Origin: Candidatus Woesearchaeota archaeon
Lineage (GTDB): Archaea; Nanobdellota; Nanobdellia; Woesearchaeales; UBA583
Assembly (NCBI GenBank): GCA_965205335.1
Contig: OZ242164.1
Span: 160,001 to 224,000 of the forward strand
Length of the DNA: 64,000 nt
Direction: 5' to 3'
Below, piece by piece: positions 6,315 to 23,544 of the stretch. The position numbers and the translations under genes were made by a program. Every line of letters starts with the position of its first letter. Positions within the stretch are counted from its first letter, which is position 1. The notes under the pieces were generated by a model. That model did not search any database, was not told where the DNA came from, and saw nothing but the letters and a program-made list of their open reading frames with translations.

Positions 6315-6467
6315 TTATTCTAATCTAATTTAAGAAAATATCAATCAGTTAAAAGAATTTCCTTTTTCATTTGAATAATTTTCCTAAAAATTTACCAAGC
6401 TTACAATTTATTAATCCTTCAACTTGAATTTCTAGAAAAAGCCTCTCTTAATCATTGTTTAAGATTT

Positions 6468-6790
6468 TTAACTTAGTTTTGAATTTTCAAAGTCTTCTTT
6501 TTTAATTAAAACATATTTTTCCACATTCTGTAATAATTCATTTGACCTTGAAAAATTAGTATTTCTGTCTCTATTAAAATAAGTGTAAAGAATTGTTTTA
6601 ACTCCCTTTTTGTAAGCATTGTTTATCGCAGGAATAAAATCAGTATCACATGCAATTAGAATTACATTTTTTATATTTGGATATTTAGCAGAAGTCTCAA
6701 TTAAATCAATAGTTAGCAAAGTATCAACTCCTTTTTGAGAAAACTTGTACCTATTACCCTCTTTTACTCTTTGACACCTTCCTTCTCTTA
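6468..6790 (-). pseudogene. 5'-truncated NYN (LabA/PIN-fold) ribonuclease
   Basis: Frame extends upstream of the listed ORF as IREGRCQR...SQKGVDTLLTIDL...LIACDTDFIPAI..AYKKGVK; N-terminus replaced by the repeat starting at 6782. Confidence 0.75.
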
Positions 6791-7895
6791 TGTTATCATC
6801 AAGTCTTTATTTTTCATAAATTTAACTAAAAATTTTGATTTCTTTATTTATAAAAGTTTAATCCATTCTATAAGTTATTAGAAAATTAAGTATTTAAGAA
6901 TAATTCCTTTGCATCTAAATATTAAAAGTAGAAATTCAAATTCCTATTGTCTTACTATCATTGAGTAGAGAAAACTATATAAATAATAATCTCTTATTAT
7001 TTTAAGTATTAAAGAGAGTTTTCACAATAAAACTCTTAAATGTTAAAAGGCATGCATTTAGTTATTTAAGAATCATATAAACTTTATATGATGGTGCAAG
7101 TTTCTTTTTAATTAACAATGGAAACAACAATTAATTTAGAAGAGAGAATAGGAAACCATATATATAATGGAGATTTTATGGGAGGAATAGAAAGTCCTTC
7201 AAAGAGGAATTTTTTAAAGAAACTTGGGGTTGGTTTAGTTAGTTTAGTAGGTTATGCAACATTATGTAGTTCAGAGGCAAATGCGCAGGGCTTACCACCG
7301 GGGATAGCAAACTGCCGTGATAGAGCAATAAGAATATTATATAGAGATCAAGTTGGAGAAGACAGAGGAAGGAGCAGCTATGGAAGCATTAATAATAGGC
7401 TGAATGGTGTAATTGGTGGATTCTTTGACAGTGTATTAGTAGAGGATAAGTCAAAAAGGATTGAGCCGGCATTGTACTTGTTAAGAGAACAAATTAATCA
7501 CAAATACCGTAGTGGGCTTGGTATTACTGTTAGATTGCCGGAGGTTAGGGATGTGCCTCAGATGTTAAATTTTGATAGAGGAATTAAAAATTTTTATATT
7601 TCTTATATTTATCAGTGGGCAGGTCGTTATATCCCGCATGAAAAAAGCATAGGGAGTGAACAGACAAAAAGAGCGACTGAGAGTAATTTTGTCCATTCAA
7701 TAGCATACGCTGCATATTCTGATACTGAAACAGCAGAACAAAAAGCAAAAGAATATTTAGAGTCAGATATGGAAGGAAAAACAAGAGTAGTTATGGACAT
7801 AAAAAAACAATTTGAGGAAATGAGTAATGGAGACAAAGAATCAAGAGACCCAAGAGACCCGTACAACAGAAAACTCGCAGCATCCTGGAGTAGTT
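6782..7895 (+). repeat. Left arm of ~1.1-kb near-perfect inverted repeat (partner 22293-23405)
   Basis: Reverse complement of 22293-23405; one 1-bp indel seen near 6882; encoded proteins identical up to LAASWSS. Confidence 0.9.
6952..7117 (+). promoter_or_regulatory. 166-bp cassette leader, copy 1 of 6 (others 8381-8546, 9794-9959, 11429-11594 on +; 21633-21798, 23071-23236 on -)
   Basis: TTACTATCATTGAGTAGAGA...AGAGTTTTcacaatAAAACTCT...TATAAAcTTTATATG...TAATTAACA-ATG, nearly identical and the same length before all six genes; TATA-like TTTATA about 30-35 nt upstream of ATG. Confidence 0.85.
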
Positions 7896-8035
7896 TTCGG
7901 CTTGAAAGAAGTATTTTTTTTGAACAGAATGGAACAGATAGTGATAGAAATTTATCAATAAATAGACACATAGAAATCCCTCTGAGAGAAGCAGTAGGGT
8001 TCAGAATCAGAGGACCTCCTCACTATAAACTCTAA
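7118..8035 (+). CDS. Twin-arginine-signal cassette protein A1, unknown function
   Basis: SKRNFLK + hydrophobic stretch + ANA/Q cleavage-like site; paralog of 8547 and 22150. Confidence 0.8.
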   Translation: METTINLEERIGNHIYNGDFMGGIESPSKRNFLKKLGVGLVSLVGYATLCSSEANAQGLPPGIANCRDRAIRILYRDQVGEDRGRSSYGSINNRLNGVIGGFFDSVLVEDKSKRIEPALYLLREQINHKYRSGLGITVRLPEVRDVPQMLNFDRGIKNFYISYIYQWAGRYIPHEKSIGSEQTKRATESNFVHSIAYAAYSDTETAEQKAKEYLESDMEGKTRVVMDIKKQFEEMSNGDKESRDPRDPYNRKLAASWSSFRLERSIFFEQNGTDSDRNLSINRHIEIPLREAVGFRIRGPPHYKL

Positions 8036-8388
8036 TCTGCTTCTCCTTTCTCTTCTGTTCTCTGATGACCCTCATCATTTTGTTGTCTTCTGCAATTGTC
8101 TGATGATGTTAAGTAAAATTCTACTAAACCACTCTTACTAAAATTTAATATTTTTTCTGGCTGCTTTTGTCCTTCTACTTCTACTATTCTTTTAGATTCT
8201 AATGTGTATCTTAATGTTAATTTTGGTGGTTCTCTTGTTCCTGTAAAATGTTGTCCTACTTTTTCTGAGAAACTTCCACTTGTATTTAACTCCCTGAATC
8301 TTCCAATTAAGCCATCTGACAAATTTATTTCTTTTGAGTCAAAATTTTTTAATCCAAGAGATAAATCTTCTATACCACCATTACTATC
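8032..8388 (-). pseudogene. Partner 3'-end fragment alpha1 (tail NDEGHQRTEEKGEAD)
   Basis: Open frame from DSNGGIEDLSLGLKNFDSKEINLSDGLIGRF to stop, with no in-frame ATG; stop overlaps the A1 stop by 4 bp. Confidence 0.7.
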
Positions 8389-8546
8389 ATTGAGTAGAGA
8401 AAACTATATAAATAATAATCTCTTATTATTTTAAGTATTAAAGAGAGTTTTCACAATAAAACTCTTAAATGTTAAAAGGCATGCATTTAGTTATTTAAGA
8501 ATTATATAAACTTTATATGATGGTGCAAGTTTCTTTTTAATTAACA

Positions 8547-9440
8547 ATGGAAACAGCAATTAATTTAGAAGAGCGAATAGGAAACCATATAGATAATAGG
8601 AATATAATGGGAGAGATAGAAAATCCTTCAAGAAGGAATTTTTTAAAAGGACTTGGGATTGGTTTAGCGGGTTATGCAATATTTGGTGGTTTAGAGGCAA
8701 ATGCACAAGGCAGATATGATAACATGGAATTATTAAGACAACATTTACCTCCCGGGATATTAAACTGCCGTGACAGAGCAATTAGAATACTATACGCTCA
8801 GGAAGTCTCTGGCCTCTGGGATGACTTTGGTAGGCTTTATTATAGAATGAAAAGTGAATTTAATGGGTACTACGACAGTGTAATAGTAGAACCTTGGTCA
8901 AGAAAGATTGAACCTGCAATGTATTTACTAAGAGAGCAAATTAATTACAAACGTGGAGGAATTTTTGCAGATTGGCGAAAGGTTACAGATGTGCCACAGA
9001 TGTTAGCTTTTGATGAGGGGATAAGATATTTTTATATTGCTTATGTTTATGGTAATGGTAATGAACAGACAAAAAGAACTACTGAAGATAAATTTGTCCA
9101 TTCAATAGCATACGCTGCATATTCTGATACTGAAACAGCAGAACAAAAAGCAAAAGAATATTTAGAGTCAGATATGGAAGGAAAAACAAGAGTAGTTATG
9201 GACATAAAAAAACAATTTGAGGAAATGAGTAATGGAGACAAAGAATCAAGAGACCCAAGAGACCCGTACAACAGAAAATTAATGGCATCTTGGAGTAGTC
9301 TTATGCTTGAACAGAGTTATTTTTTTGAACAGAATAGAACAGATAGTGAGAGGAATCTTTCAATAAACAGACATATAGAGATTCCCCTTAGAGAAGCAGT
9401 AGGGTTCAGAATCAGAGGACCTCCTCATTATAGATATTAA
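8547..9440 (+). CDS. Twin-arginine-signal cassette protein A2
   Basis: Canonical SRRNFLK motif, ANA/Q site; shares the FVHSIAY...YNRKL block with A1 and A3. Confidence 0.8.
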   Translation: METAINLEERIGNHIDNRNIMGEIENPSRRNFLKGLGIGLAGYAIFGGLEANAQGRYDNMELLRQHLPPGILNCRDRAIRILYAQEVSGLWDDFGRLYYRMKSEFNGYYDSVIVEPWSRKIEPAMYLLREQINYKRGGIFADWRKVTDVPQMLAFDEGIRYFYIAYVYGNGNEQTKRTTEDKFVHSIAYAAYSDTETAEQKAKEYLESDMEGKTRVVMDIKKQFEEMSNGDKESRDPRDPYNRKLMASWSSLMLEQSYFFEQNRTDSERNLSINRHIEIPLREAVGFRIRGPPHYRY

Positions 9441-9447
9441 TTTAATT

Positions 9448-9801
9448 TTATCCTGCACCAACTCCTTCACTTGTCAGATTATTCCCACTGCTTTGTTGTC
9501 TTCTGCAATTGTCTGATGATGTTAAGTAAAATTCTACTGAACCACTCTTACTAAAATTTAATATTTTTTCTGGCTGCTTTTGTCCTTCTACTTCTACTAT
9601 TCTTTTAGATTCTAATGTGTATCTTAATGTTAATTTTGGTGGTTCTCTTGTTCCTGTAAAATGTTGTCCTACTTTTTCTGAGAAACTTCCACTTGTATTT
9701 AACTCCCTGAATCTTCCAATTAAGCCATCTGACAAATTTATTTCTTTTGAGTCAAAATTTTTTAATCCAAGAGATAAATCTTCTATACTACCATTACTAT
9801 C
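9448..9801 (-). pseudogene. Partner 3'-end fragment alpha2 (tail SSGNNLTSEGVGAG)
   Basis: Near-identical to alpha1 up to DNCRRQQ, then a different tail. Confidence 0.7.
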
Positions 9802-9959
9802 ATTGAGTAGAGAAAATTATATAAATAACAATCTCTTATTATTTTAAGTATTAAAGAGAGTTTTCACAATAAAACTCTTAAATGTTAAAAGGCATGCATT
9901 TAGTTATTTAAGAATTATATAAACTTTATATGATGGTGCAAGTTTCTTTTTAATTAACA

Positions 9960-10883
9960 ATGGAAACAACAATTAAATTAGAAAAGCGAATAGGAAACCA
10001 TATATATAATGGAAATTTTATGGAAGAGATAGAAAGTCCTTCAAAGAGGAGATTTTTAAAAGGATTATTAGGTGCGGGGGTTGTTGCAGTTACTCCAAAA
10101 TTAGCATTTGCACAAAGAAAGAAAAGAATCTCAGATGAAGCAAGAAATAGAATATGGGCAAACTACCCAGAAATGCAGGGTGCAATTGATTTGATAAACG
10201 ATGATGTTTTTGAGGGATTAATTGATTATGCAATGTATCCAAGTCAGGGATATTCTGACCCAAGAGGTATTCCCACATCAATAAGAAAAATACCAAGAGA
10301 AGACATTGGCACACCACACTATTGGCTTCTTTTAAAAATTTACGAAGATAATTACAATTATTATGCTGATGAAGGTGGAAATCCAGGAATGGGCGTTCCG
10401 CCTCCCCCCTCCCCACCATCAGGTGTGTGGTATTTTGCAAGAGGTTTGAGAGACAATAGTCCTGACAATGAAAGTGATTTACTTAAAGCATTGTACATAG
10501 GAGCAACAGGCAGTCCACAAGGAGCAGAACCAATAATCAATGGCACATTCATGAATGTACCCAGAGTTAGAGAAAAAGTAAGAGAATGGCGAGAGAGAAA
10601 TCAACTATCTTCAGATTTGGATGAAGAAGAACACTTATTGTTAGCTTATAACTTAAATGTATTAAGGGCAGTTAGATTTAGGGACGAGGAACTTGTTGAG
10701 TTAAGTCTTTTGGCATTAGAGGATTTTTATGATGGAGTTCGTGCTCCTTCAAAGAGTGACATTTATGGAGCGGAGATTATTGCAGATTTAACGAGAAGAG
10801 ACAAATTGCCAAGATATTCCATAATTGAGAGGACTGGTTCAAGTTTTGTTGTAACATCTCCCTTGCCAGTGCTGAGATTTTAA
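9960..10883 (+). CDS. Twin-arginine-signal cassette protein B1
   Basis: SKRRFLK + h-region + AFA/Q; paralog of 11595 and 20691. Confidence 0.8.
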   Translation: METTIKLEKRIGNHIYNGNFMEEIESPSKRRFLKGLLGAGVVAVTPKLAFAQRKKRISDEARNRIWANYPEMQGAIDLINDDVFEGLIDYAMYPSQGYSDPRGIPTSIRKIPREDIGTPHYWLLLKIYEDNYNYYADEGGNPGMGVPPPPSPPSGVWYFARGLRDNSPDNESDLLKALYIGATGSPQGAEPIINGTFMNVPRVREKVREWRERNQLSSDLDEEEHLLLAYNLNVLRAVRFRDEELVELSLLALEDFYDGVRAPSKSDIYGAEIIADLTRRDKLPRYSIIERTGSSFVVTSPLPVLRF

Positions 10884-11380
10884 CCTTTTTCTTTCACGCT
10901 TCTTGTATCTTGTACTTCACCACCACTTGTGATTCTGTTATTTGTTCTGGGATCACATTGTCTTATTCTGAATGTTCTTGATATTGTTACCGGTTCTTTA
11001 TTTTTTTTAGAATTTTTATTCTTTTGATGATATGTTAAGTACAGTGTAACTTCTTCTTCAGGTGTTCCCGTAGGAAGTTTATATCCTGACAAGTTTAATT
11101 CTCCTCTATAAAGATTATCTTTATATTCTAGTTCTCTTTCGGAATCTACTTCTACTTCCTTATCATCTCTTTTTACAGTTTTTTTATATTTGAATTTTTT
11201 AAACTTGTTCTTATCACTGTCTCTTCTCTGCTGTGCAAATGAAACTCTATAATCAAAATGTTTTCCATCATTATTTGTAATAGCAACAATTTCTTGTGTA
11301 TTATAATCAAAACCCTTCAAATTACTTACCGCTGAGATTATTACTGGTATGATTAAATCCTGTTCCTCCTCTTTATTTCT
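10880..11380 (-). pseudogene. Partner 3'-end fragment beta1 (tail DPRTNNRITSGGEVQDTRSVKEKG)
   Basis: Frame open from RNKEEEQDL to stop; 5' end fused out of frame to an alpha stub; stop overlaps the B1 stop. Confidence 0.7.
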
Positions 11381-11594
11381 TTTGAGTCAAAATTTTTTAA
11401 TCCAAGAGATAAATCTTCTATACTACTATTACTATCATTGAGTAGAGATAACTATATAAATAACAATCTCTTATTATTTTAAGTATTAAAGAGAGTTTTC
11501 ACAATAAAACTCTTAAATGTTAAAAGGCACGCATTTAGTTATTTAAGAATTATATAAACTTTATATGATGGTGCAAGTTTCTTTTTAATTAACA

Positions 11595-12533
11595 ATGGAA
11601 ACAGCAATTAATTTAGAAGAGCGAATAGGAAACCATATAGATAATGGAAATATTATGGAAGAGATAGAAAGTCCTTCAAAGAGGAGATTTTTAAAAGGAT
11701 TATTAGGTGCAGGAGTTATTGCAGTTACTCCAAAATTAGCATTTGCACAAAGAAGGAAGAAAATCTCAGATGAGGCAAGAGATAGGATTTGGAAAAACTA
11801 TCCAGAAATGCGAGATGTAATTAATATGATAAATGCAGGTAAAGGCAGAAATCACCTTGATTATGCACTGTTCCCCAATCAAGAAATATCTAATCTAAGA
11901 AATCTTCCTATAATGACCGACAAGATTCCAAAAGACGACATGGGGACACCGCAATACTGGCTTCTTGTAAGAATTGACAATCCAGGAACACGAAGTTATA
12001 ATCTGCTATTTGATGGCAGGCATGATCACCTTGGTGTTCCTCCACTTTCACCTCATACGGGAGTGTGGTATTTTGCAAGAAGTTTGAAAAGCAGAAGTTC
12101 TACTAACGAAAGTGATTTGCTTAAAGCCTTGTACATAGGAGCAACAGGCAGTCCACAAGGAGCAGAACCAATAATAAATGGTACATTTATGAATGTATCT
12201 GGAGTTAGAGAAAAAGTTAGGGAATGGAGAGAAGAATATGACTTTGCCCCACATTCAGATGAAGGAAATCATCTGTTAGCATATAATCTAAACATTCTCA
12301 GGGAAGCCATTTTCCCCAACACAGAACATTTTAAAGGCAGAGAACTTGTAGAATTAAGTCTTTTGGCACTGGAGGATTTTTATGATGAGGTTTATTCACC
12401 TGAAAAGAGTAATATCTATGGAGGAAGAATAGTTGGGGATTTAACGAAGAAGGATAAGTTGCCTGGATATTTTATGATTGATGAAGCAGGAGCAGAATCT
12501 CCTTTACCTGTGTTAAGATTTCATAGTAGGTAG
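11595..12533 (+). CDS. Twin-arginine-signal cassette protein B2
   Basis: Same leader and N-region; NESDLLKALYIGATGSPQGAEPIINGTFMN block shared with B1 and B3. Confidence 0.8.
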   Translation: METAINLEERIGNHIDNGNIMEEIESPSKRRFLKGLLGAGVIAVTPKLAFAQRRKKISDEARDRIWKNYPEMRDVINMINAGKGRNHLDYALFPNQEISNLRNLPIMTDKIPKDDMGTPQYWLLVRIDNPGTRSYNLLFDGRHDHLGVPPLSPHTGVWYFARSLKSRSSTNESDLLKALYIGATGSPQGAEPIINGTFMNVSGVREKVREWREEYDFAPHSDEGNHLLAYNLNILREAIFPNTEHFKGRELVELSLLALEDFYDEVYSPEKSNIYGGRIVGDLTKKDKLPGYFMIDEAGAESPLPVLRFHSR

Positions 12534-12589
12534 CGAGAAAGAGAAATTAAAATTCCATTTATCGGTCTCTGATTGATTATTTCATCTTA

Positions 12590-13276
12590 TTAACTAACCC
12601 CTCCATCTTCTGGAGTTTTTGTTTTTTCTTTCCGTTGAACTCCACCACTTGTGATTCTGTCAATTGTTCTGGGATCACATTGTCTTATTCTGAATGTTCT
12701 TGATATAGTTACTGGTTCTTTATTTTTTTTAGGGTCTTTACTCTTTTGATGATATGTTATATACAGAGTAACTTCTTCTTCAGGAGTTCCTGTTGGAAGT
12801 TTATATCCTGACAAGTTTAATTCTCCTCTATAAAGATTATCTTTATATTCTAGTTCTACTTTTACTTTCTTTTCTCTGCCATTACTATCCTTAATTACAT
12901 TGCCATTATCATCCTTAAGTACAAGATCGAATTTTTTTTCTAACTTGTTCTTCTCATTATCTCTTCTCTGCTGTGCAAATGAAACTCTGTAATCAAAATT
13001 TTTGTTATCATCTCTTTCAATATTCATGATACTCTCATCATCATACTTGAACTTCTCCCAATTACTTACCGCAGAGATTATTACTGGTACAATTAAATCC
13101 TGTTCCTCCTCTTTGTTTCTGACACACAAGCTTTGCTTTTCAAATGGTCTTACTATATCAAATATGAAATTCATATCATCATCTTCTTCATTTTTAACGT
13201 TTGAAGCAACAGTAAATCTGAGTTCAAGTAAATCATTGACATCCACATTTCTTGACACATCTATGTCTTCACCCAT
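12590..13276 (-). CDS. Partner beta2, longest copy (possibly itself a fragment)
   Basis: 228-aa ORF; frame stays open to about 13388; shares FDYRVSFAQQRRD, LNLSGYKLPTGTPEEEVTL and EPVTISRTFRIRQC with beta1 and beta3. Confidence 0.6.
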   Translation of the reverse strand: MGEDIDVSRNVDVNDLLELRFTVASNVKNEEDDDMNFIFDIVRPFEKQSLCVRNKEEEQDLIVPVIISAVSNWEKFKYDDESIMNIERDDNKNFDYRVSFAQQRRDNEKNKLEKKFDLVLKDDNGNVIKDSNGREKKVKVELEYKDNLYRGELNLSGYKLPTGTPEEEVTLYITYHQKSKDPKKNKEPVTISRTFRIRQCDPRTIDRITSGGVQRKEKTKTPEDGGVS

Positions 13277-13444
13277 TATACTATATTTTCTGAAATTATC
13301 TCTTGTTATACTTCCTGCATTGCTTGGTAAAAGTCTTAATAATAATCTACATTTTAATTCAGTAGTTTTATTTGTATTAAGACTTTTTCATAACATATAT
13401 AATTTAATAATAAACCCCCCTTTAAGTTGACAACTCATATAAAC

Positions 13445-14474
13445 GGCTCTGTCCATAAATTAATTTTTTTAAAATAAAAGAGATGAAAATACAATTTGAT
13501 ACTAAAACATTATCATTTTTCTTTTGAAAATTATCCAATTTTCATAGAAGAAAATTACATAAGAAAGTTTTTTTCTAATGTTATACCAAAGAATATTCCA
13601 TGCCATCTCCCTTTTTTTCATAAAATGTATCCTACTTCTGATATTTAGGCCTTGAACTCTCTTGAGTGATGAAAACACACTCTCGACATTGTTCCTTTTA
13701 TTGTATATTTCTTTGTTTTTGAAGTATTTTTGTTTGATTTTCCAATGCTTAAAAGCATTATGCTTGGTTTTTGCATAGTCTTTTGGCGGGAAAATCAAAT
13801 CTATATCTTTATCATTTAGAAAATCTAAATGATCAAAGGAAAAATATCCTTTGTCTGCCACAATAACACTCTTCTTTATTTTGAGTCTTTTGAAAAGTTT
13901 GTTTGCAACTTTTGAATCATGCTGATTCTTAACCAAGAAAGAATAATCAATTATTTGTTTAGAGCCTTGTACGTCACAAATTATATCTAATTTGTGCCAA
14001 GGTGATTTGGGTTCAAATCCAATCCGATGTTTGTAATAAGTAGTTTTATGGTCTGCATCAATTCCCGAACCATCAATTGCTACAAGGTCTGGATTAGGAT
14101 TTTCTAAAGAAAGTCTAATTAGGTTGCGGATAAAACTAACTGAGAAGAACTTTAACCACTTATGAAGTGTTGATTTCTTTGGAAGGCGTTTTAACTGCAA
14201 CCAATGCTTCCATGCGGTTAATGTGCCGTCTAGATTGCTTACAAACCTTCTAAAGGATTTTCCTGATTGGATGTATAAGACTATTATAGAAACTCTTTGA
14301 TAATTGTTAAAGAGTTTGCAACCCCTCACAAAATTGTGAGGCCTTAACCTTAAACTATGACAAAGTTTAAGTACTTCCTTATGTAAACTATTAGTAAAGT
14401 TGGTGTGTTCTAACATAAAAAACTATCAACTTTACACTTTATTAATTCTTCGATTTGAATTTATGGACAGTGCC
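13445..14474 (-). mobile_element. IS5-family insertion sequence (ISH1/IS903-like), 1030 bp
   Basis: 17-bp TIRs GGCTCTGTCCATAAATT / GGCACTGTCCATAAATT around a DDE transposase. Confidence 0.9.
13502..14416 (-). CDS. IS5-family DDE transposase
   Basis: VAIDGSG, HDS, VADKGY, YNKRNNVESVFSSLKR. Confidence 0.9.
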   Translation of the reverse strand: MLEHTNFTNSLHKEVLKLCHSLRLRPHNFVRGCKLFNNYQRVSIIVLYIQSGKSFRRFVSNLDGTLTAWKHWLQLKRLPKKSTLHKWLKFFSVSFIRNLIRLSLENPNPDLVAIDGSGIDADHKTTYYKHRIGFEPKSPWHKLDIICDVQGSKQIIDYSFLVKNQHDSKVANKLFKRLKIKKSVIVADKGYFSFDHLDFLNDKDIDLIFPPKDYAKTKHNAFKHWKIKQKYFKNKEIYNKRNNVESVFSSLKRVQGLNIRSRIHFMKKREMAWNILWYNIRKKLSYVIFFYENWIIFKRKMIMF

Positions 14475-14522
14475 TACACTTGAATAAATTTATAAATAAA
14501 GAGAAATAAAAATACTTTAACT

Positions 14523-16730
14523 ATGAAGATAAATAAGAGGATACGATTATGTATTATTTTAGTGTCGTTGTTTTTCTTATTAGGAATTACTGGATGTGTG
14601 CAAGAACCAGTAATAGTAGAAGAGAATGGCAATACAACATCCAATATAATCGATACAGATTTTGAATATGAATTGTTTAATCAATCTCTGGAAATAAAAA
14701 ATTTCACATCAGAAACCCAACTTAGCGAATATTTAAAGAAGAATTCACAATCAGGTAGTTTCTATTATTCAGATGATTTTGCAACTTTTGGTACTTTTGA
14801 AGGAGATGTAGTCTTTGAAGCTTCTGCTCAAGCAGATTCTTCTGTCAGTGCAAAATCAATAGAGAGTGTTAGAGCAGATGATTACTCCCAGACAAATATA
14901 CAGGTTGAAGGTGTAGATGAGGCTGATTTTGTTAAAAATGATGGAAAATATATTTATATGATATTGCAGGGAAAATTAGTAATTGTAGATGCTTATCCTC
15001 CAAAAGAAGCGAAAATCATATCAAAAACAGAAATTAAAGGAAATCCTCAAAATTTATATATTAATAAAGATAGAGTTATAGTATTTGCATCAGATTATAA
15101 AAAAGTGCAAAAAATCTCAAGATATGATTTCATTCCAAAAGAAACCTCAGAAAGGCATACAATTGCATACATCTATAATGTTTCAGACAGGAAAAATCCA
15201 AAACTCTTAAAGGAATATTCTGCAACAGGAAATTATTTAGAGTCTCGGATGATTGAAGATTATATTTATTTTATATCAAAAGAATCTATCTATTACTATG
15301 ATGATGTAATCACTTTCCCTGAGGTGAGATTAGATGGGAACTTAATTAGCACCCCAGAAGTTTTTTATTTTGATATTCCAGAAAGCAGATATATATTTCA
15401 CACTTTTACAACTTTTAATATATATGAAGATAAAAAATCTAATGCAAAGACATTTATGCTTGGAGCATCAAACAATGTATATGTATCCCAAGATAATATT
15501 TATATAACTCATAAGAAAACATATCCAAGTTTGTTCTATAAGCAATTAGAAATTGATAAATTCTTCAAGGCAGTTGTCCCATTACTCCCTACCCAAGTTG
15601 CAGATAATATCTCAGAAATTAGAAGGGGGTTAGAGGATAACTCAATAGAATCTTATAATGCAATATGGAATGAAATATCTGTTGTTCTTGAAGATATGTA
15701 TAATTCTATGGAGAAGGATGAAAAATATGAATTAATTGATAAAATTGAAGAATCTTTAATTGAGTATGAAACCGAGATTGAAGATAAGATTTCATCATCT
15801 GTTGTTCATAAAATCTCAATTAATGAAGACGAGATTGAATATTTAACAAACGGAGAGGTCAAGGGAACACTTTTAAATCAGTTTTCAATGGATGAAAAAG
15901 ATGGAAATTTAAGGGTTGCAACAACAACTAACTCTTTTTCACGTCAAAGAGGCAGAGTTATGTATAATAATGTATATGTGTTAGATGAAGATTTAGAAAT
16001 TATCGGAAAAATTGAAAAGATTGCACCTGATGAGAGAATTTATTCAACAAGATTTATGGGAGATAAACTTTATATGGTAACATTTAAACAAATAGACCCG
16101 TTATTTACAATTGATTTGTCTAACCCAGAAGAACCTAAAATAATAGGACAGTTAAAAATTCCCGGATTTTCAAATTATCTTCACCCGTATGATGAGAATC
16201 ATTTAATAGGGATTGGACAGGATACATACGTGAATGATCGTGGGGGGGTTAGAACAAAAGGAGTTAAGATTTCATTATTTGATGTTTCAGATTTTGAGAA
16301 TCCAAGAGAGGTTGATAATGTTATTATCGGAGATGAGGGTTCTTATTCGGAGGTTTTAAATGATCATAAAGCACTTTTGTTTAGCCGTGAAAAGAATTTA
16401 CTTGTACTGCCAATTAGAGAAGTATCTGATAACTATAAAACAGATAGAGGCGGGTATTTTAGAAACAGAGTTTGGAATGGGGCTTATGTGTTTACAGTTA
16501 CGCCTGACGGGTTTAGCGAGCGGGGAAAGATAAAACATTCAGATAAAGAATATGATACATATTATTGGAGTTCACCAAGTTCAGTAAGAAGAGCATTATA
16601 CTTAGATGATAATTTATACACGATTTCAGATGAGTATATTAAAATTAATGATTTAAACACTATTGATGAGATAGGAGATATAAAACTGCCTTATAATGAT
16701 AGATGGTATTATGATTATTGGTATAAATAA
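14523..16730 (+). CDS. Secreted beta-propeller domain lipoprotein
   Basis: Lipobox-like LLGITGC; YSQTNIQVEGVDEADFVKNDG, LLNQFSMDE, ERIYSTRF, GQLKIPGFSNYLHP motifs. Confidence 0.9.
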   Translation: MKINKRIRLCIILVSLFFLLGITGCVQEPVIVEENGNTTSNIIDTDFEYELFNQSLEIKNFTSETQLSEYLKKNSQSGSFYYSDDFATFGTFEGDVVFEASAQADSSVSAKSIESVRADDYSQTNIQVEGVDEADFVKNDGKYIYMILQGKLVIVDAYPPKEAKIISKTEIKGNPQNLYINKDRVIVFASDYKKVQKISRYDFIPKETSERHTIAYIYNVSDRKNPKLLKEYSATGNYLESRMIEDYIYFISKESIYYYDDVITFPEVRLDGNLISTPEVFYFDIPESRYIFHTFTTFNIYEDKKSNAKTFMLGASNNVYVSQDNIYITHKKTYPSLFYKQLEIDKFFKAVVPLLPTQVADNISEIRRGLEDNSIESYNAIWNEISVVLEDMYNSMEKDEKYELIDKIEESLIEYETEIEDKISSSVVHKISINEDEIEYLTNGEVKGTLLNQFSMDEKDGNLRVATTTNSFSRQRGRVMYNNVYVLDEDLEIIGKIEKIAPDERIYSTRFMGDKLYMVTFKQIDPLFTIDLSNPEEPKIIGQLKIPGFSNYLHPYDENHLIGIGQDTYVNDRGGVRTKGVKISLFDVSDFENPREVDNVIIGDEGSYSEVLNDHKALLFSREKNLLVLPIREVSDNYKTDRGGYFRNRVWNGAYVFTVTPDGFSERGKIKHSDKEYDTYYWSSPSSVRRALYLDDNLYTISDEYIKINDLNTIDEIGDIKLPYNDRWYYDYWYK

Positions 16731-16814
16731 ATGTAGATTATAAACTCAGATATGCTTAAAAAATTATACTTTATTTGTATATGTTTATAACTTGAATTTA
16801 TAATTTGCAGTTAC

Positions 16815-16942
16815 GGCTCTGTCCATAAATTCAAAAGAACTTAAAATATTATATAAATAAAGTAATTTTTGACAAATAATCTTTTTCTTTGATTGAATAT
16901 AGTTAGCATAGATTTTGGAGAAAACAATTTATGGACAGAGCC
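16815..16942. mobile_element. MITE (128 bp) with TIRs matching the IS at 13445
   Basis: GGCTCTGTCCATAAATT...AATTTATGGACAGAGCC; interior homologous to the copies at 29848 and 43884. Confidence 0.9.
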
Positions 16943-17284
16943 ATATAAACGATAATTTTATAAATATATTATATAATTAATTGTTTAAACAATTTGCTTA
17001 ATAGCCATATATGGAGAATATGACTATTAGTTTGCTTGGGTTAGGTAACGAATATTAAAATATTCGTATTTGGCTTATTACGCTTATTCTAATATTTGAA
17101 ATAAAACACACGTTGCCTATCCTACTTACTTTAAACGTTTAGATTTTAAATAGTTATCGCTTAATTTTCCAAAGATCTTTAGTGTTCTTTTACTCCTTTT
17201 CAGAAAAGAGAAAAATTTATGAATGAACACCCTTTTTAATTTTTATGGAAGGAATTAATAAATATTTAAAAAACGCTTCTAAGA

Positions 17285-17773
17285 GTGGAAGGGGGGAGGG
17301 AGGACAATATGGAAGAAAATATAAAATTTTATTCTGAAATTTACGTTCAAATAATTTATTGCATTAATAAAAAAGGTCTTATAATTAAAGAGAATAAATT
17401 TAATTTTAATAAATTTAAAAAATTAGTCTTAGAATTAAAATCAAAAAATGTGTTTGATTCTATTTTAAATAAGTATAATAAATTTGATGAAAATGAATTA
17501 AAACTAATTCTTATTGGAATTATGAAGATTATTATAAATAGATTTAAAGGAATTGTAGAAGATACTCAAGAAACTTCGCAAAATTATAGTGAAGAATATA
17601 AAGCTGCACTTGCTGATATAAAACATAATTCTTTAAGAGAAATTCAAAAGTTTGAAGAATTAATTTCTAAAAATCAATTTGAAAATATAATATCAGAGAT
17701 AAAGAAAAGCAATATAAGATATGATCCCAAATTTTTTCATTTATTCAGTGAAAGAAATAATAAGAGAACTTAA
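17285..17773 (+). CDS. Hypothetical protein
   Basis: ORF only; ATG near 17309 is the likelier start. Confidence 0.45.
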   Translation: MEGGREDNMEENIKFYSEIYVQIIYCINKKGLIIKENKFNFNKFKKLVLELKSKNVFDSILNKYNKFDENELKLILIGIMKIIINRFKGIVEDTQETSQNYSEEYKAALADIKHNSLREIQKFEELISKNQFENIISEIKKSNIRYDPKFFHLFSERNNKRT

Positions 17774-17821
17774 GAAACTATTGAATCAAACTAAACAAAT
17801 TTTAGAAGAAAACATAATCTA

Positions 17822-17911
17822 CTATTGTAGATATAATACGATATAAATAATAATTATAATTATGCCAATAATAATAAACATACTAATTTGGGATTTCTTT
17901 GCCTTACTCAT
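17822..17911 (-). pseudogene. Class III (pilin-like) signal peptide stub
   Basis: MSKAKKSQ/ISMFIIIGIIIIIIYIVLYLQ then stop. Confidence 0.4.
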
Positions 17912-18390
17912 ATATTCATTACCTAATATTAAATAACACATTTATAATATATGAGGTATGAAAATATTTATAAGTTTATTGAATATGAAAAAAAATTATT
18001 TTTAAATATCAGAATGTGCATATAATATTATGGAAAAAGAACGCAAATGGATGAGTGTTAGTTGGAGGTTTGATAAAAACGGAAATACAATTGGTAAAAA
18101 ACCAGTGTGTAGTGCCATGACATATGTCACCAGTCTAAAGATTAACAATTCTTGTTAACTTTCTTAAAAAACTTTGAGACAGCCTATCTCCAATAAAAAG
18201 AATAAGAGGGAAAGTATCTGATATTGAAGGGGAAATAGAGTTCAAATAGAGATTAAATCTTCAAGTTAAATATGATATTCATATTTTCTGTTACTTCTTC
18301 GTTTAACTCGTGTAAACCTTCTAACTTCTCTGTTATTTCTTCTTCCGACTTCTTGACCTTAGTTTTCTTCATATTTGTTGATTGACAAAG

Positions 18391-18615
18391 TTATTTATAT
18401 ATATTTTTTCTTAAGCCCAAATATTTGACATAAAGTTCCTTTTCCTCAAAATTAATACTAATTAATGTCCTATGATTTCCAATTTTAAGTTTATAATATT
18501 TATCTCCTTCGTAATGTTCTAAATAATGAAAAGGGTTACTTTCAAGTTTTTTTAACTTAACTTTTGTATCTATTATTAAATAGATTTTAAAAAAGATTTT
18601 CTTGATGAATTTCAA
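18391..18615 (-). pseudogene. Degenerate RelE/ParE-family toxin
   Basis: KLKKLESNP...YKLKIGNHR...LYVKYLGLRKNIYK; N-terminus irregular. Confidence 0.6.
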
Positions 18616-18626
18616 AAGTAAAAACC

Positions 18627-20039
18627 AAATGGTAAAATTTACAGAGATTTACCGTTATTAACAATTGAATTAAATTTATCGCTCCTAATGAAAATACTTC
18701 TATTTCCTGCTGATTTCTCAATCAAAAACCCTAAATTTACCAGTTTTTGCAAATCACTTCTAGCAGTTTGTTTTGTAATTACAAATCTCTGTGAGATTTC
18801 TAAAACTGAAAAAATTCTATTCTTATCACTTTCATAAAAACCTAAGATTTGAGCTTGTCTCTCTGTCAAATCCCCATATTTTAAGAACTTCATTGAACTT
18901 CTCTTCTCTTTTAACTTTCTTTCAATATATGCTCTTAAATCATTAAAAGCTAATTCAATTTTATCAACTTTATAATTAATAAAATATGTTAAGTCATTAT
19001 CATCAATTTCTGAATATACGTAAGCTTTAGAATATTGAGAATGACTCTTTATAATAATTCTTGATATACTAATATATTCAAATAGCCAGTAATTATTTGA
19101 GATAAGGTAAAGAAAAAAAATACATCTTGCACATCTTCCGTTTCCATCATAAAATGGATGTATATATCCAAGTAAGAAATGTAATATATTTGCTTTTATA
19201 ATTGGATGTATAAAGAATTTCTGTTCATTATTATAAAAATCACAAAAATCATCTATTAATCTTCCTAATTCTTTCTTACTTGGAGGAATATGATAAACTT
19301 CTCCTGTAATTCTGTCTGCAACTTTGATTTCATCTGTGTTTCTGAATTTTCCTTCGTAATCTACCTTCTCTAACGTTTTGGATGTAATTATCTGATGGAG
19401 TTCCAATAAAATCTCTTTTGTTAGTTTTTCCCCTTTTAAGTCTAAAATTCTTTTCATTGCAAGAAAATTGTTTAAAATCATCTTTTGACTTTTATCTTTA
19501 GGTTTTTTTCTGTTTAGAATCATATCCTTTGCAACTTTTATTGTTGTGCTTGCACCCTCTAACCTTGATGAATTAATTGATTCCTCAATAATTGAATTTA
19601 TTAAAAATCTATCTATTTCATCACTGGGGATTATTCCATTAACTGTTAAACTACCCCCTAAATTTAAGTCAAAATTGTGCAACTTCTCTAAAGTACTACT
19701 TGTTAAGTTAAAACAAAATCTGTACTTTCCAATCTTAATTGATTTTAAATTCTTCATTCTTTCAAGTTTCATCATATGCCAAATATCCTCTCTTGATATA
19801 CCTCTAGGAATATTCTTGTAGTATAATTTCTCCCAATAAATATATTTCTCATTGTATTCTTTGACTAATTCTCTAAATTTTGAATTTGATATGTATGCTT
19901 TAAAAATTCTAGATAAATACTCAGAATCAGCCTTCTTAGGAGGTATTTTTGGAAATCTCATTCTAATATTAGAATTACTTACTTATTTATAAAATTTGTG
20001 TAAATGGTAAAATTTACAGAAATTTACCATTATTGACAA
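18627..20039. repeat. 38-bp quasi-palindromic direct repeats at 18627-18664 and 20002-20039 flanking the Fic gene
   Basis: AAATGGTAAAATTTACAGA(G/A)ATTTACC(G/A)TTATT(A/G)ACAA, 3 mismatches. Confidence 0.8.
18639..19961 (-). CDS. Fic-domain protein with C-terminal wHTH
   Basis: HPFYDGNGRCAR Fic motif; SSRLEG; ITKQTARSDLQKLV HTH. Confidence 0.92.
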   Translation of the reverse strand: MRFPKIPPKKADSEYLSRIFKAYISNSKFRELVKEYNEKYIYWEKLYYKNIPRGISREDIWHMMKLERMKNLKSIKIGKYRFCFNLTSSTLEKLHNFDLNLGGSLTVNGIIPSDEIDRFLINSIIEESINSSRLEGASTTIKVAKDMILNRKKPKDKSQKMILNNFLAMKRILDLKGEKLTKEILLELHQIITSKTLEKVDYEGKFRNTDEIKVADRITGEVYHIPPSKKELGRLIDDFCDFYNNEQKFFIHPIIKANILHFLLGYIHPFYDGNGRCARCIFFLYLISNNYWLFEYISISRIIIKSHSQYSKAYVYSEIDDNDLTYFINYKVDKIELAFNDLRAYIERKLKEKRSSMKFLKYGDLTERQAQILGFYESDKNRIFSVLEISQRFVITKQTARSDLQKLVNLGFLIEKSAGNRSIFIRSDKFNSIVNNGKSL

Positions 20040-20054
20040 CAGCATTTACATAAA

Positions 20055-20683
20055 GTGAAGAAGAGGTTAAATGAAAGAGGAGATGATGTTTACTGGACAT
20101 GGAATAGTGATGACATTCATTTAGCATTTGATTTAGTTAGACCGTTTGAAAAGCAAAGTGTTTGTGTCAGAAATAAAGAAGAGGAACAAGATCTAAATGT
20201 ATCAGTAATAATCTCTGCGGTAAGTAATTTGAAGGATTTTAAGTATATAATGTAAATATTAAAAACAATGATGTAGATGATGATATAGAAAAAGTTCCTA
20301 ATTATTTTGATTATAGAGTTTCATTTGCACAGCAGAGAAGAGATAGTGATAAGAACAAGTTTAAAAAATTCAAATATAAAAAAACTGTAAAAAGAGGTGA
20401 TAAGGAAGTAGAAGTAGATTCCGAAAGAGAACTAAATTATACAGATAATCTTTATAGTGGAATTTTAAACTTGTCAGGATATAAACTTCCAACAGGAACT
20501 CCTGAAGAGGAAGTTACACTGCATATAACTTATCATAAAAAAGATAAAGAACCAGTAACAATATCAAGAACATTCAGAATAAGACAATGTAATCCTGGAA
20601 TAATTGACAGAACCTCTACAGATGACGGTGATGATCCTAGTATTAAGGGAAGCTCTGGGGGAGATATTCCTAGTCAAGAATAA
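20055..20683 (+). pseudogene. Partner beta3, frameshifted near 20245 (tail NPGIIDRTSTDDGDDPSIKGSSGGDIPSQE)
   Basis: FDLVRPFEKQSVCVRNKEEEQDL in one frame continues as FDYRVSFAQQRRD...RIRQC in another. Confidence 0.75.
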
Positions 20684-20690
20684 TTATGAG

Positions 20691-21632
20691 TTAAAATCTT
20701 AATCTTGGTAAAGGATCTCTTACAACATAAATTGAACCATCTCTTTCAATTATAGAATATTCTGGCAACTTTCCTTTTTCTGTTAGGTCTTCAATTACCC
20801 ATGCCCGATAAAGACTTCTCCTTTCAGGAGAATTAGTTCTATCATAAAAATCCGCCAATGTTAAAAGACTTAGTTCTACAAGTTCTTTATCTCTAAAATC
20901 CACGTTCCTGAGAATATTCACATTATATGCTAATAGGTGATTTCCTTCGTCTGAAAATGGAGCAAAGTCATATTTTTCTTTCCATTCTCTTACTTTTTCT
21001 CTAACTCCAGATGCATTCATAAATGTACCATTTATTATTGGTTCTGCTCCTTGTGGACTGCCTGTTGCTCCTACATATAATGATTTAAGTAAATCACTTT
21101 CATTGTCAGGACTATTGTCTCTCAAACCTCTTGCAAAATACCACACACCTGAAGGGGGAGAGGGGGGAGGCGGAACGTCTAACCCTGGATCTCCGTCCTC
21201 ATCGGCAAAGAAATTATAATCATCATCTGCATGAATTTTTAAAAGAAGCCAATAGTGTGGTGTGTCCATATCTTCGCTTGATATTTTATCTATTGATGTA
21301 GGAATACCTCTTGGACTATAATATCCCTGATCTGGATACATTGCATAATCAATTAATACATCATCAACGGATTCATCATTCACATAATTATCATTTATCA
21401 AGTCAATTGCTCCTTGCATTTCTGGGTAGTTTGCCCAAATCCTATTTCTTGCTTCATCTGAGATTTTCTTCCTTCTTTGTGCAAATGCTAATTTTGGAGT
21501 AACTGCAATAACTCCTGCACCTAATAATCCTTTTAAAAATCTCCTCTTTGAAGGACTTTCTATCTCTTCCATAAAATTTCCATTATATATATGGTTTCCT
21601 ATTCGCTTTTCTAATTTAATTGCTGTTTCCAT
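20691..21632 (-). CDS. Twin-arginine-signal cassette protein B3
   Basis: B1-like N-terminal two thirds; B2-like YDFAP.SDEGNHLLAYN block. Confidence 0.8.
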   Translation of the reverse strand: METAIKLEKRIGNHIYNGNFMEEIESPSKRRFLKGLLGAGVIAVTPKLAFAQRRKKISDEARNRIWANYPEMQGAIDLINDNYVNDESVDDVLIDYAMYPDQGYYSPRGIPTSIDKISSEDMDTPHYWLLLKIHADDDYNFFADEDGDPGLDVPPPPSPPSGVWYFARGLRDNSPDNESDLLKSLYVGATGSPQGAEPIINGTFMNASGVREKVREWKEKYDFAPFSDEGNHLLAYNVNILRNVDFRDKELVELSLLTLADFYDRTNSPERRSLYRAWVIEDLTEKGKLPEYSIIERDGSIYVVRDPLPRLRF

Positions 21633-21790
21633 TGTTAATTAAAAAGAAACTTGCACCATCATATAAAGTTTATATAATTCTTAAATAACTAAATGCATGC
21701 CTTTTAACATTTAAGAGTTTTATTGTGAAAACTCTCTTTAATACTTAAAATAATAAGAGATTGTTATTTATATAATTTTCTCTACTCAAT

Positions 21791-22147
21791 GATAGTAATG
21801 GTGGTATAGAAGATTTATCTCTTGGATTAAAAAATTTTGACTCAAAAGAAATAAATTTGTCAGATGGCTTAATTGGAAGATTCAGGGAGTTAAATACAAG
21901 TGGAAGTTTCTCAGAAAAAGTAGGACAACATTTTACAGGAACAAGAGAACCACCAAAATTAACATTAAGATACACATTAGAATCTAAAAGAATAGTAGAA
22001 GTAGAAGGACAAAAGCAGCCAGAAAAAATATTAAATTTTAGTAAGAGTGGTTTAGTAGAATTTTACTTAACATCATCAGACAATTGCAGAAGACAACAAC
22101 AAGGAGATGTAGGGGGAGTAGGTGATGCCGATGAAGGGGAAATTTAA
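21791..22147 (+). pseudogene. Partner 3'-end fragment alpha3 (tail QGDVGGVGDADEGEI)
   Basis: Identical to alpha1 up to DNCRRQQ, third distinct tail. Confidence 0.7.
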
Positions 22148-22149
22148 TG

Positions 22150-23070
22150 TTAATATTTATAATTATAGTGGGGGGGTCCTCTAATCTTAAATCCTACATC
22201 TTCTCTTAATGGTGCTTCTATATTTCTATTTATAAGTAAGCCTATTTCCATTTGATTACCCCTACTAGGGCGATAATTTACTACAAGCCAATAACTACTC
22301 CAGGATGCTGCGAGTTTTCTGTTGTACGGGTCTCTTGGGTCTCTTGATTCTTTGTCTCCATTACTCATTTCCTCAAATTGTTTTTTTATGTCCATAACTA
22401 CTCTTGTTTTTCCTTCCATATCTGACTCTAAATATTCTTTTGCTTTTTGTTCTGCTGTTTCAGTATCAGAATATGCAGCGTATGCTATTGAATGGACAAA
22501 ATTACTCTCAGTCGCTCTTTTTGTCTGTTCACTCCCTATGCTTTTTTCATGCGGGATATAACGACCTGCCCACTGATAAATATAAGAAATATAAAAATTT
22601 TTAATTCCTCTATCAAAATTTAACATCTGAGGCACATCCCTAACCTCCGGCAATCTAACAGTAATACCAAGCCCACTACGGTATTTGTGATTAATTTGTT
22701 CTCTTAACAAGTACAATGCCGGCTCAATCCTTTTTGACTTATCCTCTACTAATACACTGTCAAAGAATCCACCAATTACACCATTCAGCCTATTATTAAT
22801 GCTTCCATAGCTGCTCCTTCCTCTGTCTTCTCCAACTTGATCTCTATATAATATTCTTATTGCTCTATCACGGCAGTTTGCTATCCCCGGTGGTAAGCCC
22901 TGCGCATTTGCCTCTGAACTACATAATGTTGCATAACCTACTAAACTAACTAAACCAACCCCAAGTTTCTTTAAAAAATTCCTCTTTGAAGGACTTTCTA
23001 TTCCTCCCATAAAATCTCCATTATATATATGGTTTCCTATTCTCTCTTCTAAATTAATTGTTGTTTCCAT
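22150..23070 (-). CDS. Twin-arginine-signal cassette protein A3
   Basis: Identical to A1 up to LAASWSS, distinct last ~47 aa. Confidence 0.8.
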   Translation of the reverse strand: METTINLEERIGNHIYNGDFMGGIESPSKRNFLKKLGVGLVSLVGYATLCSSEANAQGLPPGIANCRDRAIRILYRDQVGEDRGRSSYGSINNRLNGVIGGFFDSVLVEDKSKRIEPALYLLREQINHKYRSGLGITVRLPEVRDVPQMLNFDRGIKNFYISYIYQWAGRYIPHEKSIGSEQTKRATESNFVHSIAYAAYSDTETAEQKAKEYLESDMEGKTRVVMDIKKQFEEMSNGDKESRDPRDPYNRKLAASWSSYWLVVNYRPSRGNQMEIGLLINRNIEAPLREDVGFKIRGPPHYNYKY

Positions 23071-23405
23071 TGTTAATTAAAAAGAAACTTGCACCATCAT
23101 ATAAAGTTTATATGATTCTTAAATAACTAAATGCATGCCTTTTAACATTTAAGAGTTTTATTGTGAAAACTCTCTTTAATACTTAAAATAATAAGAGATT
23201 ATTATTTATATAGTTTTCTCTACTCAATGATAGTAAGACAATAGGAATTTGAATTTCTACTTTTAATATTTAGATGCAAAGGAATTATTCTTAAATACTT
23301 AATTTCTAATAACTTATAGAATGGATTAAACTTTTATAAATAAAGAAATCAAAATTTTTAGTTAAATTTATGAAAAATAAAGACTTGATGATAACATAAG
23401 AGAAG
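22293..23405 (-). repeat. Right arm of ~1.1-kb inverted repeat
   Basis: Reverse complement of 6782-7895. Confidence 0.9.
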
Positions 23406-23544
23406 TTGTTACCATATCAAAAGAAGAGTATGAGAGTCTTAAGGCAAAAGAGAAATTTGCACAATATGGTTTAGCCCAACTCAAACTTACTTATAGCAGA
23501 ATACGAAAAAAACGGACTTCAAAAAGTCCTATAGTCATCTACTA
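23370..23544 (+). pseudogene. Frameshifted small antitoxin-like gene
   Basis: ATG at 23370 is out of frame with DDNIREVVTISKEEYESLKAKEK, a pattern common in small archaeal antitoxins. Confidence 0.35.

Follow-up and report, generated by a model that had tools for sequence, protein, structure and literature searches.

Orphan 3' ends of a giant gene arrayed with convergent signal-peptide genes in a Candidatus Woesearchaeota genome

This work concerns an array of repeated gene units in a Candidatus Woesearchaeota archaeon (Nanobdellota; Woesearchaeales; UBA583), located within a window of 64,000 nucleotides (nt), positions 160,001 to 224,000 of contig OZ242164.1 (assembly GCA_965205335.1). The genome is a single contig of 1,199,749 nt (~1.2 Mb) and is 95% complete. 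Open reading frame (ORF) listing and repeat finding revealed six intact genes encoding proteins of 297-313 amino acids (aa): A1, A2, B1 and B2 on the forward strand, B3 and A3 on the reverse strand. All units, here termed cassettes, follow one design, in which a constant leader of 166 nt precedes an A or B gene and this gene is followed by the convergent, truncated end of another gene, named alpha or beta. The initial annotation, made from the sequence alone, had described six units of a leader and an intact twin-arginine-type gene facing each other across insertion sequence (IS) and Fic DNA, and the ORF and repeat listing confirms this layout. The count of six holds for the window, but a seventh unit, composed of a leader and the B4 gene (302 aa), lies at genome positions 754808-755879, 590 kb from the array. 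The strict pairing proposed for the array extends to this unit: A occurs with alpha (3/3) and B with beta (4/4, B4 included) in all seven units.

The outer 1124 nt of the two facing arms form a perfect inverted repeat (6782-7904 and 22284-23405, 100% complementary). The left copy takes in an upstream extension, a leader and most of A1; a second comparison gave 1114 nt with one mismatch or indel. From this end inwards, the first leader (6952-7117, forward strand, located by repeat and genome search) precedes A1 (7118-8035, forward, 305 aa), whose signal peptide contains SKRNFLKK and whose mature part is predicted to be all-alpha; alpha1 (8032-8403, reverse) converges on it. The second leader (8381-8546, forward) is followed by A2 (8547-9440, forward, 297 aa, SRRNFLKG) and alpha2 (9448-9816, reverse), and the third (9794-9959, forward) by B1 (9960-10883, forward, 307 aa, SKRRFLKG) and beta1 (10880-11380, reverse; ~166 codons). 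The last cassette of this arm comprises the fourth leader (11429-11594, forward), B2 (11595-12533, forward, 312 aa) and beta2 (12590-13387, reverse), 265 codons in an open frame cut by an IS element (13440-14520, reverse) with a DDE_Tnp_1 transposase gene at 13502-14416. In the opposite arm, the outermost leader (the sixth, 23071-23236, reverse) precedes A3 (22150-23070, reverse, 306 aa), which equals A1 except for its C-terminal ~45 residues, and alpha3 (21776-22147, forward). The inner cassette consists of the fifth leader (21633-21798, reverse), B3 (20691-21632, reverse, 313 aa) and beta3 (20037-20683, forward), ~200 codons split over two frames and thus broken. Between the arms lie the IS element, a gene for a 735-aa beta-propeller protein, a 162-aa ORF and a Fic gene.

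The nature of the convergent ends became apparent at the seventh unit. B4 converges on a complete gene encoding 1838 aa (genome 755942-761455), whose last 253 residues are 78% identical to beta2; the full-length counterpart that the initial annotation had proposed to look for, convergent with an A or B gene elsewhere, thus exists for beta. The convergent ends are real, as annotated, but they are 3' fragments of one gene for a giant secreted protein: alpha is not a 96-aa gene, and beta3 is not intact. The 1838-aa protein has a single hydrophobic segment, its N-terminal signal, and 29 cysteines; the three giants of congeners that were scanned have 25-26 cysteines at corresponding positions. For these reasons we read the giant as wholly extracellular. 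Neither the whole protein nor its last 228-260 residues gave a significant match in Pfam, NCBIfam, PADLOC or PHROGs. The only domain match was a sub-threshold one to Big_13 (immunoglobulin-related), a sequence search of the PDB was empty, and the ESM Atlas gave no usable match for the core.

Of 301 genomes sampled from the order, 144 have the core of the giant (about residues 1036-1237), mostly in a single gene of 1.4-2.5 thousand residues; this tally takes in four genomes flagged as unpublished (G112, G183, G206 and G208), on which no other claim depends. A profile of the last ~260 residues, built from sequences of the genus only and biased accordingly, matched 15 of the 19 other genomes of the genus and none of 21 outside it. 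Searched against 1.84 billion representative proteins, it retrieved 69: 28 of at least 1600 aa with the domain at the extreme C-terminus, 13 of 463-1169 aa and 28 shorter than 350 aa, among which orphan fragments and cuts at contig ends are indistinguishable. The C-termini of congener giants are homologous (23-30% identity), and of the 16 genomes with this C-terminal domain, 4 have it in extra copies. The genome studied here has a single 1838-aa gene together with the fragments beta1-3, alpha1-3 and one further alpha-type piece (nine matches of the A4 profile).

No full-length alpha copy was found in this genome. The alpha frame is open over 123 codons and runs through a 57-nt spacer into the leader. 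It is 57% identical (E = 2e-33) to P0055, a metagenomic protein of 304 aa whose upstream part carries the motifs of the giant's C-terminal domain. The further alpha-type piece is a 103-aa ORF located 3 kb upstream of B4 (genome about 751.8-752.1 kb; L014 3792-4103, reverse strand), from which it is separated by small ORFs and an rve-type IS; it is 56% identical to residues 74-171 of P0055 (E = 3e-38). Taken together, the open frame, the match to P0055 and the piece near B4 identify the alpha copies as tails that derive from an alpha-type allele of this giant gene. The three copies are about 99% identical except in their last ~15 codons. The beta fragments are more varied in condition, beta2 being cut by the IS, beta3 distributed over two frames and beta1 joined to the alpha-type spacer. 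At this last joint (11372-11426), the 57 nt that separate each alpha fragment from the leader recur. As the same 57 nt and leader stand behind alpha1-3 and beta1, the internal junctions of the array trace to one founding joint. The ratio of nonsynonymous to synonymous divergence (dN/dS) of the beta fragments is 0.47-0.64.

Comparison of the units in sliding windows revealed sharp switches between ~100% and ~50% identity. The B2/beta2 and B4/beta4 units have in common a tract of 656 nt with 3 mismatches (window 12159-12814; genome 755508-756163), which takes in the 3'-terminal 125 codons of B, the spacer and ~75 codons at the end of beta. Identity is 27-83% in the 5' halves of these genes, and over the whole mature genes the synonymous divergence (dS) is 0.34 for B2-B4 and 0.30 for beta2-beta4. 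The A1 and A3 units are identical over 1114 nt and 484 nt and differ solely in a patch of ~180 nt (7896-8079 in the A1 unit, 22100-22292 in the A3 unit), in which the C-terminal ~44 residues of A and ~16 of alpha are encoded. These identity profiles show the cassettes to be mosaics, which through homologous recombination appear to have exchanged segments both among themselves and with the full-length locus. The exchanged tracts are flanked by the constant leader and signal region on one side and by giant-gene sequence on the other, and the segment most often replaced encodes both C-termini. No site-specific recombinase or diversity-generating retroelement was found among the ORFs of positions 6400-23500, where the IS transposase is the sole recombinase.

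The A and B proteins are 63-93% and 61-75% identical within their types. With dN/dS of 0.23-0.47 and dS of 0.13-1.13, the partner genes evolve as real genes. The initial annotation had recognised no known family, and indeed neither A nor B belongs to a family in Pfam, NCBIfam, PADLOC or PHROGs. Both yielded all-alpha AlphaFold2 models (B4: predicted local distance difference test (pLDDT) 82, predicted template modelling score (pTM) 0.81; A1: pLDDT 74, pTM 0.76), with which a Foldseek search of the PDB returned nothing below E = 1. A distant relationship between A and B had also been proposed. The models share their all-alpha character, and three motifs occur in the same order, but aligning the family profiles of the mature parts with hhalign gave a probability of 0.4% and E = 0.15 over 48 columns, so that homology is unsupported. 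BLAST similarity between A and B is restricted to the first 44-45 residues, which are 67-71% identical (86% for A2-B2); the remainder is not shared.

The leader has exactly seven copies in the genome, 98-100% identical and each located before an A or B gene, six in the window and one at 754808-754973. As RNA, it gave a fold z-score of -1.45 and no Rfam match at E <= 1; at the gathering threshold, Rfam detects one transfer RNA only in the whole window. Such constancy beside partner genes with dS of 0.13-1.13 needs a special explanation: the leader is either homogenised by gene conversion or situated just outside the replaced tracts. The shared N-terminal region bears a motif of the S/T-R-R-x-F-L-K type, with RR in A2 and B4 and KR in A1, A3 and B1-3 (5/7 copies). 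The twin-arginine motif of the initial annotation is therefore visible, but the array proteins score only 11.8-15.1 bits with Pfam TAT_signal, below its cut-off of 22.7, and A1 and A3 have no match. Export by the twin-arginine (Tat) pathway, also part of that annotation, is not supported by the genome, in which neither TatC nor TatA was found; the same TatC search did detect the gene elsewhere, in 11 of 121 genomes from the order as well as in 11 of 14 controls. From the missing TatC and TatA, the KR form in most copies and the sub-threshold Pfam scores, we infer that the proteins are probably exported by Sec despite their Tat-like motif. The distribution of TatC in the order is patchy, and the gene was likewise not found in the congener G040. 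RR- or KR-type motifs occur on the partner proteins of G000, G158, G040 and G532. A and B have no lipobox, and no phase-variable tract was found.

The association of a giant gene with a convergent gene for a signal-peptide protein extends to other members of the genus. It was observed in four of the five congeners examined (G158, G040, G282 and G532); in the fifth, G226, no convergent partner of 100 aa or more follows the giant. The convergent partners of G158, G040 and G282 have 249-270 aa. G282 also possesses an orphan giant fragment of about 855 codons with its own partner, and its two partner genes have a common leader, 96.5-99% identical over 106-116 nt and unrelated to the leader described above, although the proteins themselves are not similar by BLAST. 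The G282 giant (L034 6442-13141) is represented by two overlapping ORFs (1445 and 792 aa), and the orphan copy (2127-4689) is split correspondingly (315 and 540 aa), so that the split is a common feature rather than a sequencing error. In G532, a tandem arrangement comprises the full gene (1715 aa), a partner of 319 aa (GRRDFLKK), an orphan of 628 codons and a second partner of 316 aa. The two units are 91% identical over 2951 nt, with long tracts of 100% identity around a patch of 48-63% identity. This patch covers the final ~45 codons of the partner and ~25 of the giant, the same place as in A1 and A3. In its N-terminal 58 residues, the G532 partner is similar to A (36% identity, E = 1e-4 by BLAST), and it contains the motif H-A-Y-W-L-L, to be compared with H-Y-W-L-L in B, L-Y-L-L in A and W-Y-L-L in the G158 partner, which hints at one fast-evolving partner superfamily.

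Beyond the genus, the layout is looser. Among 20 genomes of other members of the order, the nearest ORF downstream of the giant is convergent in 11, and 4 of these 11 have a signal-like N-terminus as judged by eye; in the remainder, a co-oriented membrane protein gene or other genes lie downstream. In four loci from other families (L038, L039, L040 and L043), the convergent neighbour has an H-E-x-x-H motif, and these proteins are partly similar to each other: G061p matches G169p (E = 5.6e-30) and G096p (E = 8e-5), and G120p matches G169p weakly (E = 0.054). The partner position in those families may hold a small metalloprotease-like protein. In other DPANN lineages (L044 7110-8996, L054 1746-3668 and similar loci), the giant lies near a fusion protein of ~630 aa combining nucleotidyltransferase and HEPN domains, and also near a membrane protein of ~270 aa of no known family. 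The fusion protein fits the MNT-HEPN cluster given for DPANN in PMC6393860.

Relatives of the array partners themselves also exist elsewhere. Among 5.8 billion clustered proteins we could identify 30 for B and about 20 for A. A single B protein had no match in 300 other genomes of the order, a B profile had none in a sample of 400 genomes of the phylum, and viral contigs had no relatives of A or B. Among the B relatives, the N-terminus is either RR-type or Cys-rich and lipoprotein-like, the C-terminal ~60 residues fall into at least three types, and every combination of the two occurs. For A, the C-terminal patch type of A3 recurs in P0047, a protein 58% identical to A1 overall. More distant A relatives are found in bacteria and metagenomes. 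One, in a metagenome-assembled genome (MAG) of Gammaproteobacteria, is 38% identical and encoded beside TbpB-like, LuxR and Opp genes. Six contigs of the Joint Genome Institute (JGI) carry A copies that are 23-45% identical over the best segment. On the four with listed ORFs, the A-like ORFs start with an RR-type signal, and tblastn with the tail sequences detected no tail on any of the six. The linkage of A to alpha is nevertheless preserved in one homologue, so that this expectation of the initial annotation is borne out for a close relative and fails for the distant bacterial and metagenomic ones.

This close relative is encoded on L055, a contig of 2.4 kb from a MAG of Binatota. Its A copy (locus 631-1650) is 65% identical and still has a convergent alpha-tail remnant of ~48 codons. 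The mature A domain and the alpha-tail remnant form an island of low guanine-cytosine (GC) content, 25-52% in 100-nt windows. The part encoding the signal peptide has 59-67% GC, the flanks and the signal stretch together 59-69%, and the next gene, a carboxylesterase-like ORF, 68%. The unit that appears to have been exchanged, a mature partner with a giant tail, would equal that of the array. L055 could also be a chimeric assembly, the contig being short and its coverage low.

Several features of the surroundings bear the mark of rearrangement. The IS of the array has six full copies and one partial copy in the genome, the partial one at 750258-750562, near the further alpha-type piece. A gene with a NYN domain (6468-6806, reverse strand) lacks its N-terminal half and its frame runs into the left end of the inverted repeat, which makes this array edge a rearrangement breakpoint. 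The Fic gene (18639-19961, reverse strand) matches the model of the SoFic anti-phage defence system (E = 4.6e-45) and lies between 45-nt direct repeats of 87% identity (18627-18671 and 20002-20046), which gives it the appearance of an insertion next to the point where beta3 is truncated. An 885-aa ORF (24401-27058, reverse strand) directly adjoins the array; it starts with a hydrophobic stretch, matches no family in Pfam or NCBIfam and may be another surface protein.

We consider, with confidence and doubt about evenly balanced, that orphan cassettes from the 3' end of a single giant secreted surface-protein gene are stored in the array and reshuffled to give a repertoire of tips and partners; this reshuffling would probably vary surface recognition. 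A cassette would consist of the giant gene's last 115-265 codons and a complete gene for a partner of ~300 aa with its constant leader and signal peptide. The partner would be an exported all-alpha protein that acts together with the C-terminal tip of the extracellular giant and probably binds it. Since both C-termini lie on one DNA patch, a single recombination event that swaps this junction module could change tip and partner together and keep the pair matched. With all partner genes intact, the cell would then have a repertoire of tip/partner specificities at its disposal when it meets hosts, kin or viruses. A complex prediction for the last 260 residues of beta4 with mature B4 (score 0.10, mark 0.32) speaks neither for nor against binding. 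The pair may serve docking and display, self-recognition, or immunity-like neutralisation. The capture of the partner domain by other organisms leans towards a stand-alone function of the partner, whereas the conserved fold of the tip and the lack of a toxin signature lean against a classical toxin. The initial annotation had likewise envisaged a repertoire of exported proteins with cognate convergent gene ends, and this much is supported, for a repertoire that recombines; its notion of a collected, free-standing repertoire fits less well, as the cassettes rather look like displaced or archived tails of the giant gene.

A number of observations weigh against such a store of cassettes. There is only one clear exchange tract between the array and the full-length locus, and the IS elements and the truncated NYN gene at the array edge indicate that plain rearrangement is active here. 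In every comparison dN/dS stays below 1, so that diversifying selection is not apparent overall. The giant-gene fragments have neither start codon nor promoter and beta3 is broken; they may be decaying junk rather than maintained donors. The partners of congeners appear at most weakly A-like, in the N-terminal signal region, and not B-like (best hhalign E = 0.016). The A relatives in bacteria (L056 and four JGI loci) stand alone, accompanied by neither giant gene nor alpha tail, from which it follows that the A family can work without a giant protein. Finally, the order of the array lacks confirmation from bridging reads: no contig of the three public runs (X1-X3, short contigs from one sample) bridges the repeats, and this order rests on the single-contig assembly.

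The last point raises the question of an assembly artefact, in which the assembler would have concatenated strain variants of a single locus. The repeats (0.3-1.1 kb, 96-100% identical) are prone to misassembly, none is bridged by a public contig, and variant contigs show that related alleles exist in the sample. One such contig (runs X2 and X3) is 95% identical to B1 over 284 nt (window 10155-10438, 14 differences), with a depth of 23.6 compared with about 5, run depths not being used here as evidence. Its diverging upstream part, read as T-I-S-D-Y-A-R-D-C-I, matches Cys-rich B relatives such as P0010 and indicates a second organism or strain in the sample with a B1-like allele and another N-terminus. 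We nevertheless regard an artefact as highly improbable. The genome was assembled as one 1.2-Mb contig, the unique part of each cassette is covered by contigs of the three runs at 99-100% identity, the junctions have specific structures (the succession of beta1, 57 nt and leader; the IS cut in beta2), and the same kind of tandem unit is present in independent assemblies of two other species. More serious, though doubtful in our opinion, is a neutral origin, with unequal crossing-over, followed by an IS-linked inverted duplication, multiplying a partner gene along with the adjoining end of the giant gene; the outcome would be an expansion of paralogues, junk fragments and ordinary gene conversion in a symbiont with small populations. 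The single origin of all internal junctions (57 nt and leader behind alpha1-3 and beta1) fits this view, as do the IS cut in beta2 in a genome with six full IS copies, the broken beta3, the truncated NYN gene and dN/dS below 1; the G532 unit, too, resembles a simple tandem duplication (91% over 2951 nt). It is harder to reconcile with deeply diverged copies (dS up to 1.13) beside leaders that are 98-100% identical, or with patches of ~50% identity inside flanks of 100% at the same junction in two species, since such patches have third alleles as their source and not local decay. All seven partner genes are moreover intact, the same unit is duplicated in three species, and it is also found in a foreign genome, that of the Binatota MAG.

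Two further explanations assign the module to conflict between cells. According to the one, which we consider unlikely, it follows the logic of polymorphic toxins: the tip would act on the envelopes of hosts or rivals and be neutralised by the exported partner, and the array would be a set of antidotes to the tips of the cell itself and of its neighbours, with partner genes captured by other organisms for their own protection. The partner genes remain intact while the effector fragments decay, the orphan modules adjoin the main gene in G282 and G532, and the bacterial MAG contig has a low-GC mature A and alpha tail behind a high-GC signal peptide, all in keeping with this idea; so is the B1-like contig from the same sample (95% identical over 284 nt), deeper at 23.6 and with an N-terminus of the Cys-rich type. 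Yet no toxin domain was detected in the giant's last 228-260 residues, and the C-terminal domain is one homologous fold across the genus (23-30% identity) rather than an assortment of unrelated toxins. The partner gene has its own leader and is convergent instead of being co-transcribed downstream; its product has ~300 aa and is predicted to be exported, and the distant bacterial relatives of A are ordinary stand-alone genes. The other, which we rate as distinctly unlikely, supposes a lock-and-key relation of tip and partner encoded on one patch and archived in the array, from which co-resident bacteria would capture the partner halves, place them behind their own signal peptides and blunt the contact protein, in an arms race between domains.

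To our knowledge, the means by which DPANN archaea recognise and hold other cells are largely unknown, and giant surface proteins are the main suspects. Here, one giant is conserved (144/301 genomes of the order), and in one genus its tail seems to be reshuffled together with a dedicated exported partner. If the array is indeed a store of tips and partners, it would represent an archaeal form of cassette-based surface variation in which both convergent partners are changed in a single recombination event, and it gives a concrete protein pair for the study of binding and specificity. A bacterial MAG contig carries the module, as may a second organism of the sample, which suggests a cross-domain exchange of surface-specificity genes.

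A literature search retrieved no description of such a tail-and-partner module, and the known systems resemble it in part only. Polymorphic toxin systems are treated by Zhang et al. (2012; PMC3482391). Orphan C-terminal/immunity modules are a feature of such systems, examples being cdiA-CT/cdiI of contact-dependent inhibition (CDI) and the tips of Rhs proteins. As in those systems, a large secreted protein has its C-terminal end exchanged by recombination, and truncated 3' orphans occur with a small cognate gene, beside the main gene in G282 and G532. In contrast to them, the partner is convergent (7/7 units; 4/5 congeners), has its own constant leader, is predicted to be exported and reaches ~300 aa; there is one homologous C-terminal fold with variation concentrated in patches; and a distance of 590 kb separates the array from the full-length gene. 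Toxin domains, pre-toxin motifs and secretion-system genes were not found. Among archaea, the VARTIG proteins of Thermococcales (Makarova et al., 2021; PMC8416519) also are large secreted proteins with a C-terminal region made hypervariable by recombination, variable neighbours and a polymorphic-toxin-like layout; its authors report no close counterpart in other archaea. VARTIG is built around an immunoglobulin-type protein of arCOG07710; the giant described here appears to belong to a different protein family, with only a sub-threshold Big_13 match, and to a lineage other than Thermococcales. Genes downstream of VARTIG are co-oriented and, in the part of the article available, an orphan array is not described, whereas the partner is convergent in our case. 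The locus therefore lacks some defining features of polymorphic toxins (its partner is convergent and no toxin domain was found) and of VARTIG.

Other parallels come from systems of antigenic variation. The vlp, vsp and vsa families of Mycoplasma are variable surface lipoproteins with a conserved 5' region and signal peptide, and they resemble the array in being clustered, with a near-identical leader and signal region before divergent mature proteins. They differ from it in that A and B have no lipobox, that neither a site-specific recombinase nor a phase-variable tract was found, and that each gene is tied to a fragment of another gene. Systems with one expression site and silent cassettes include pilE/pilS of Neisseria and MgPar of Mycoplasma genitalium. 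The same organisation is known from vlsE and the vls cassettes of Borrelia (PMC11499132, PMC2632889). Like these, our locus combines one full-length gene with an array of promoterless partial copies of its variable region, in a small genome of a host-dependent organism, and its identity is segmental and sharply bounded, as gene conversion would give. The present organism, however, is an archaeon and has no adaptive immune system to evade. Moreover, each of its cassettes contains a complete and probably expressed second gene, and the putative variable module spans the ends of two convergent genes.

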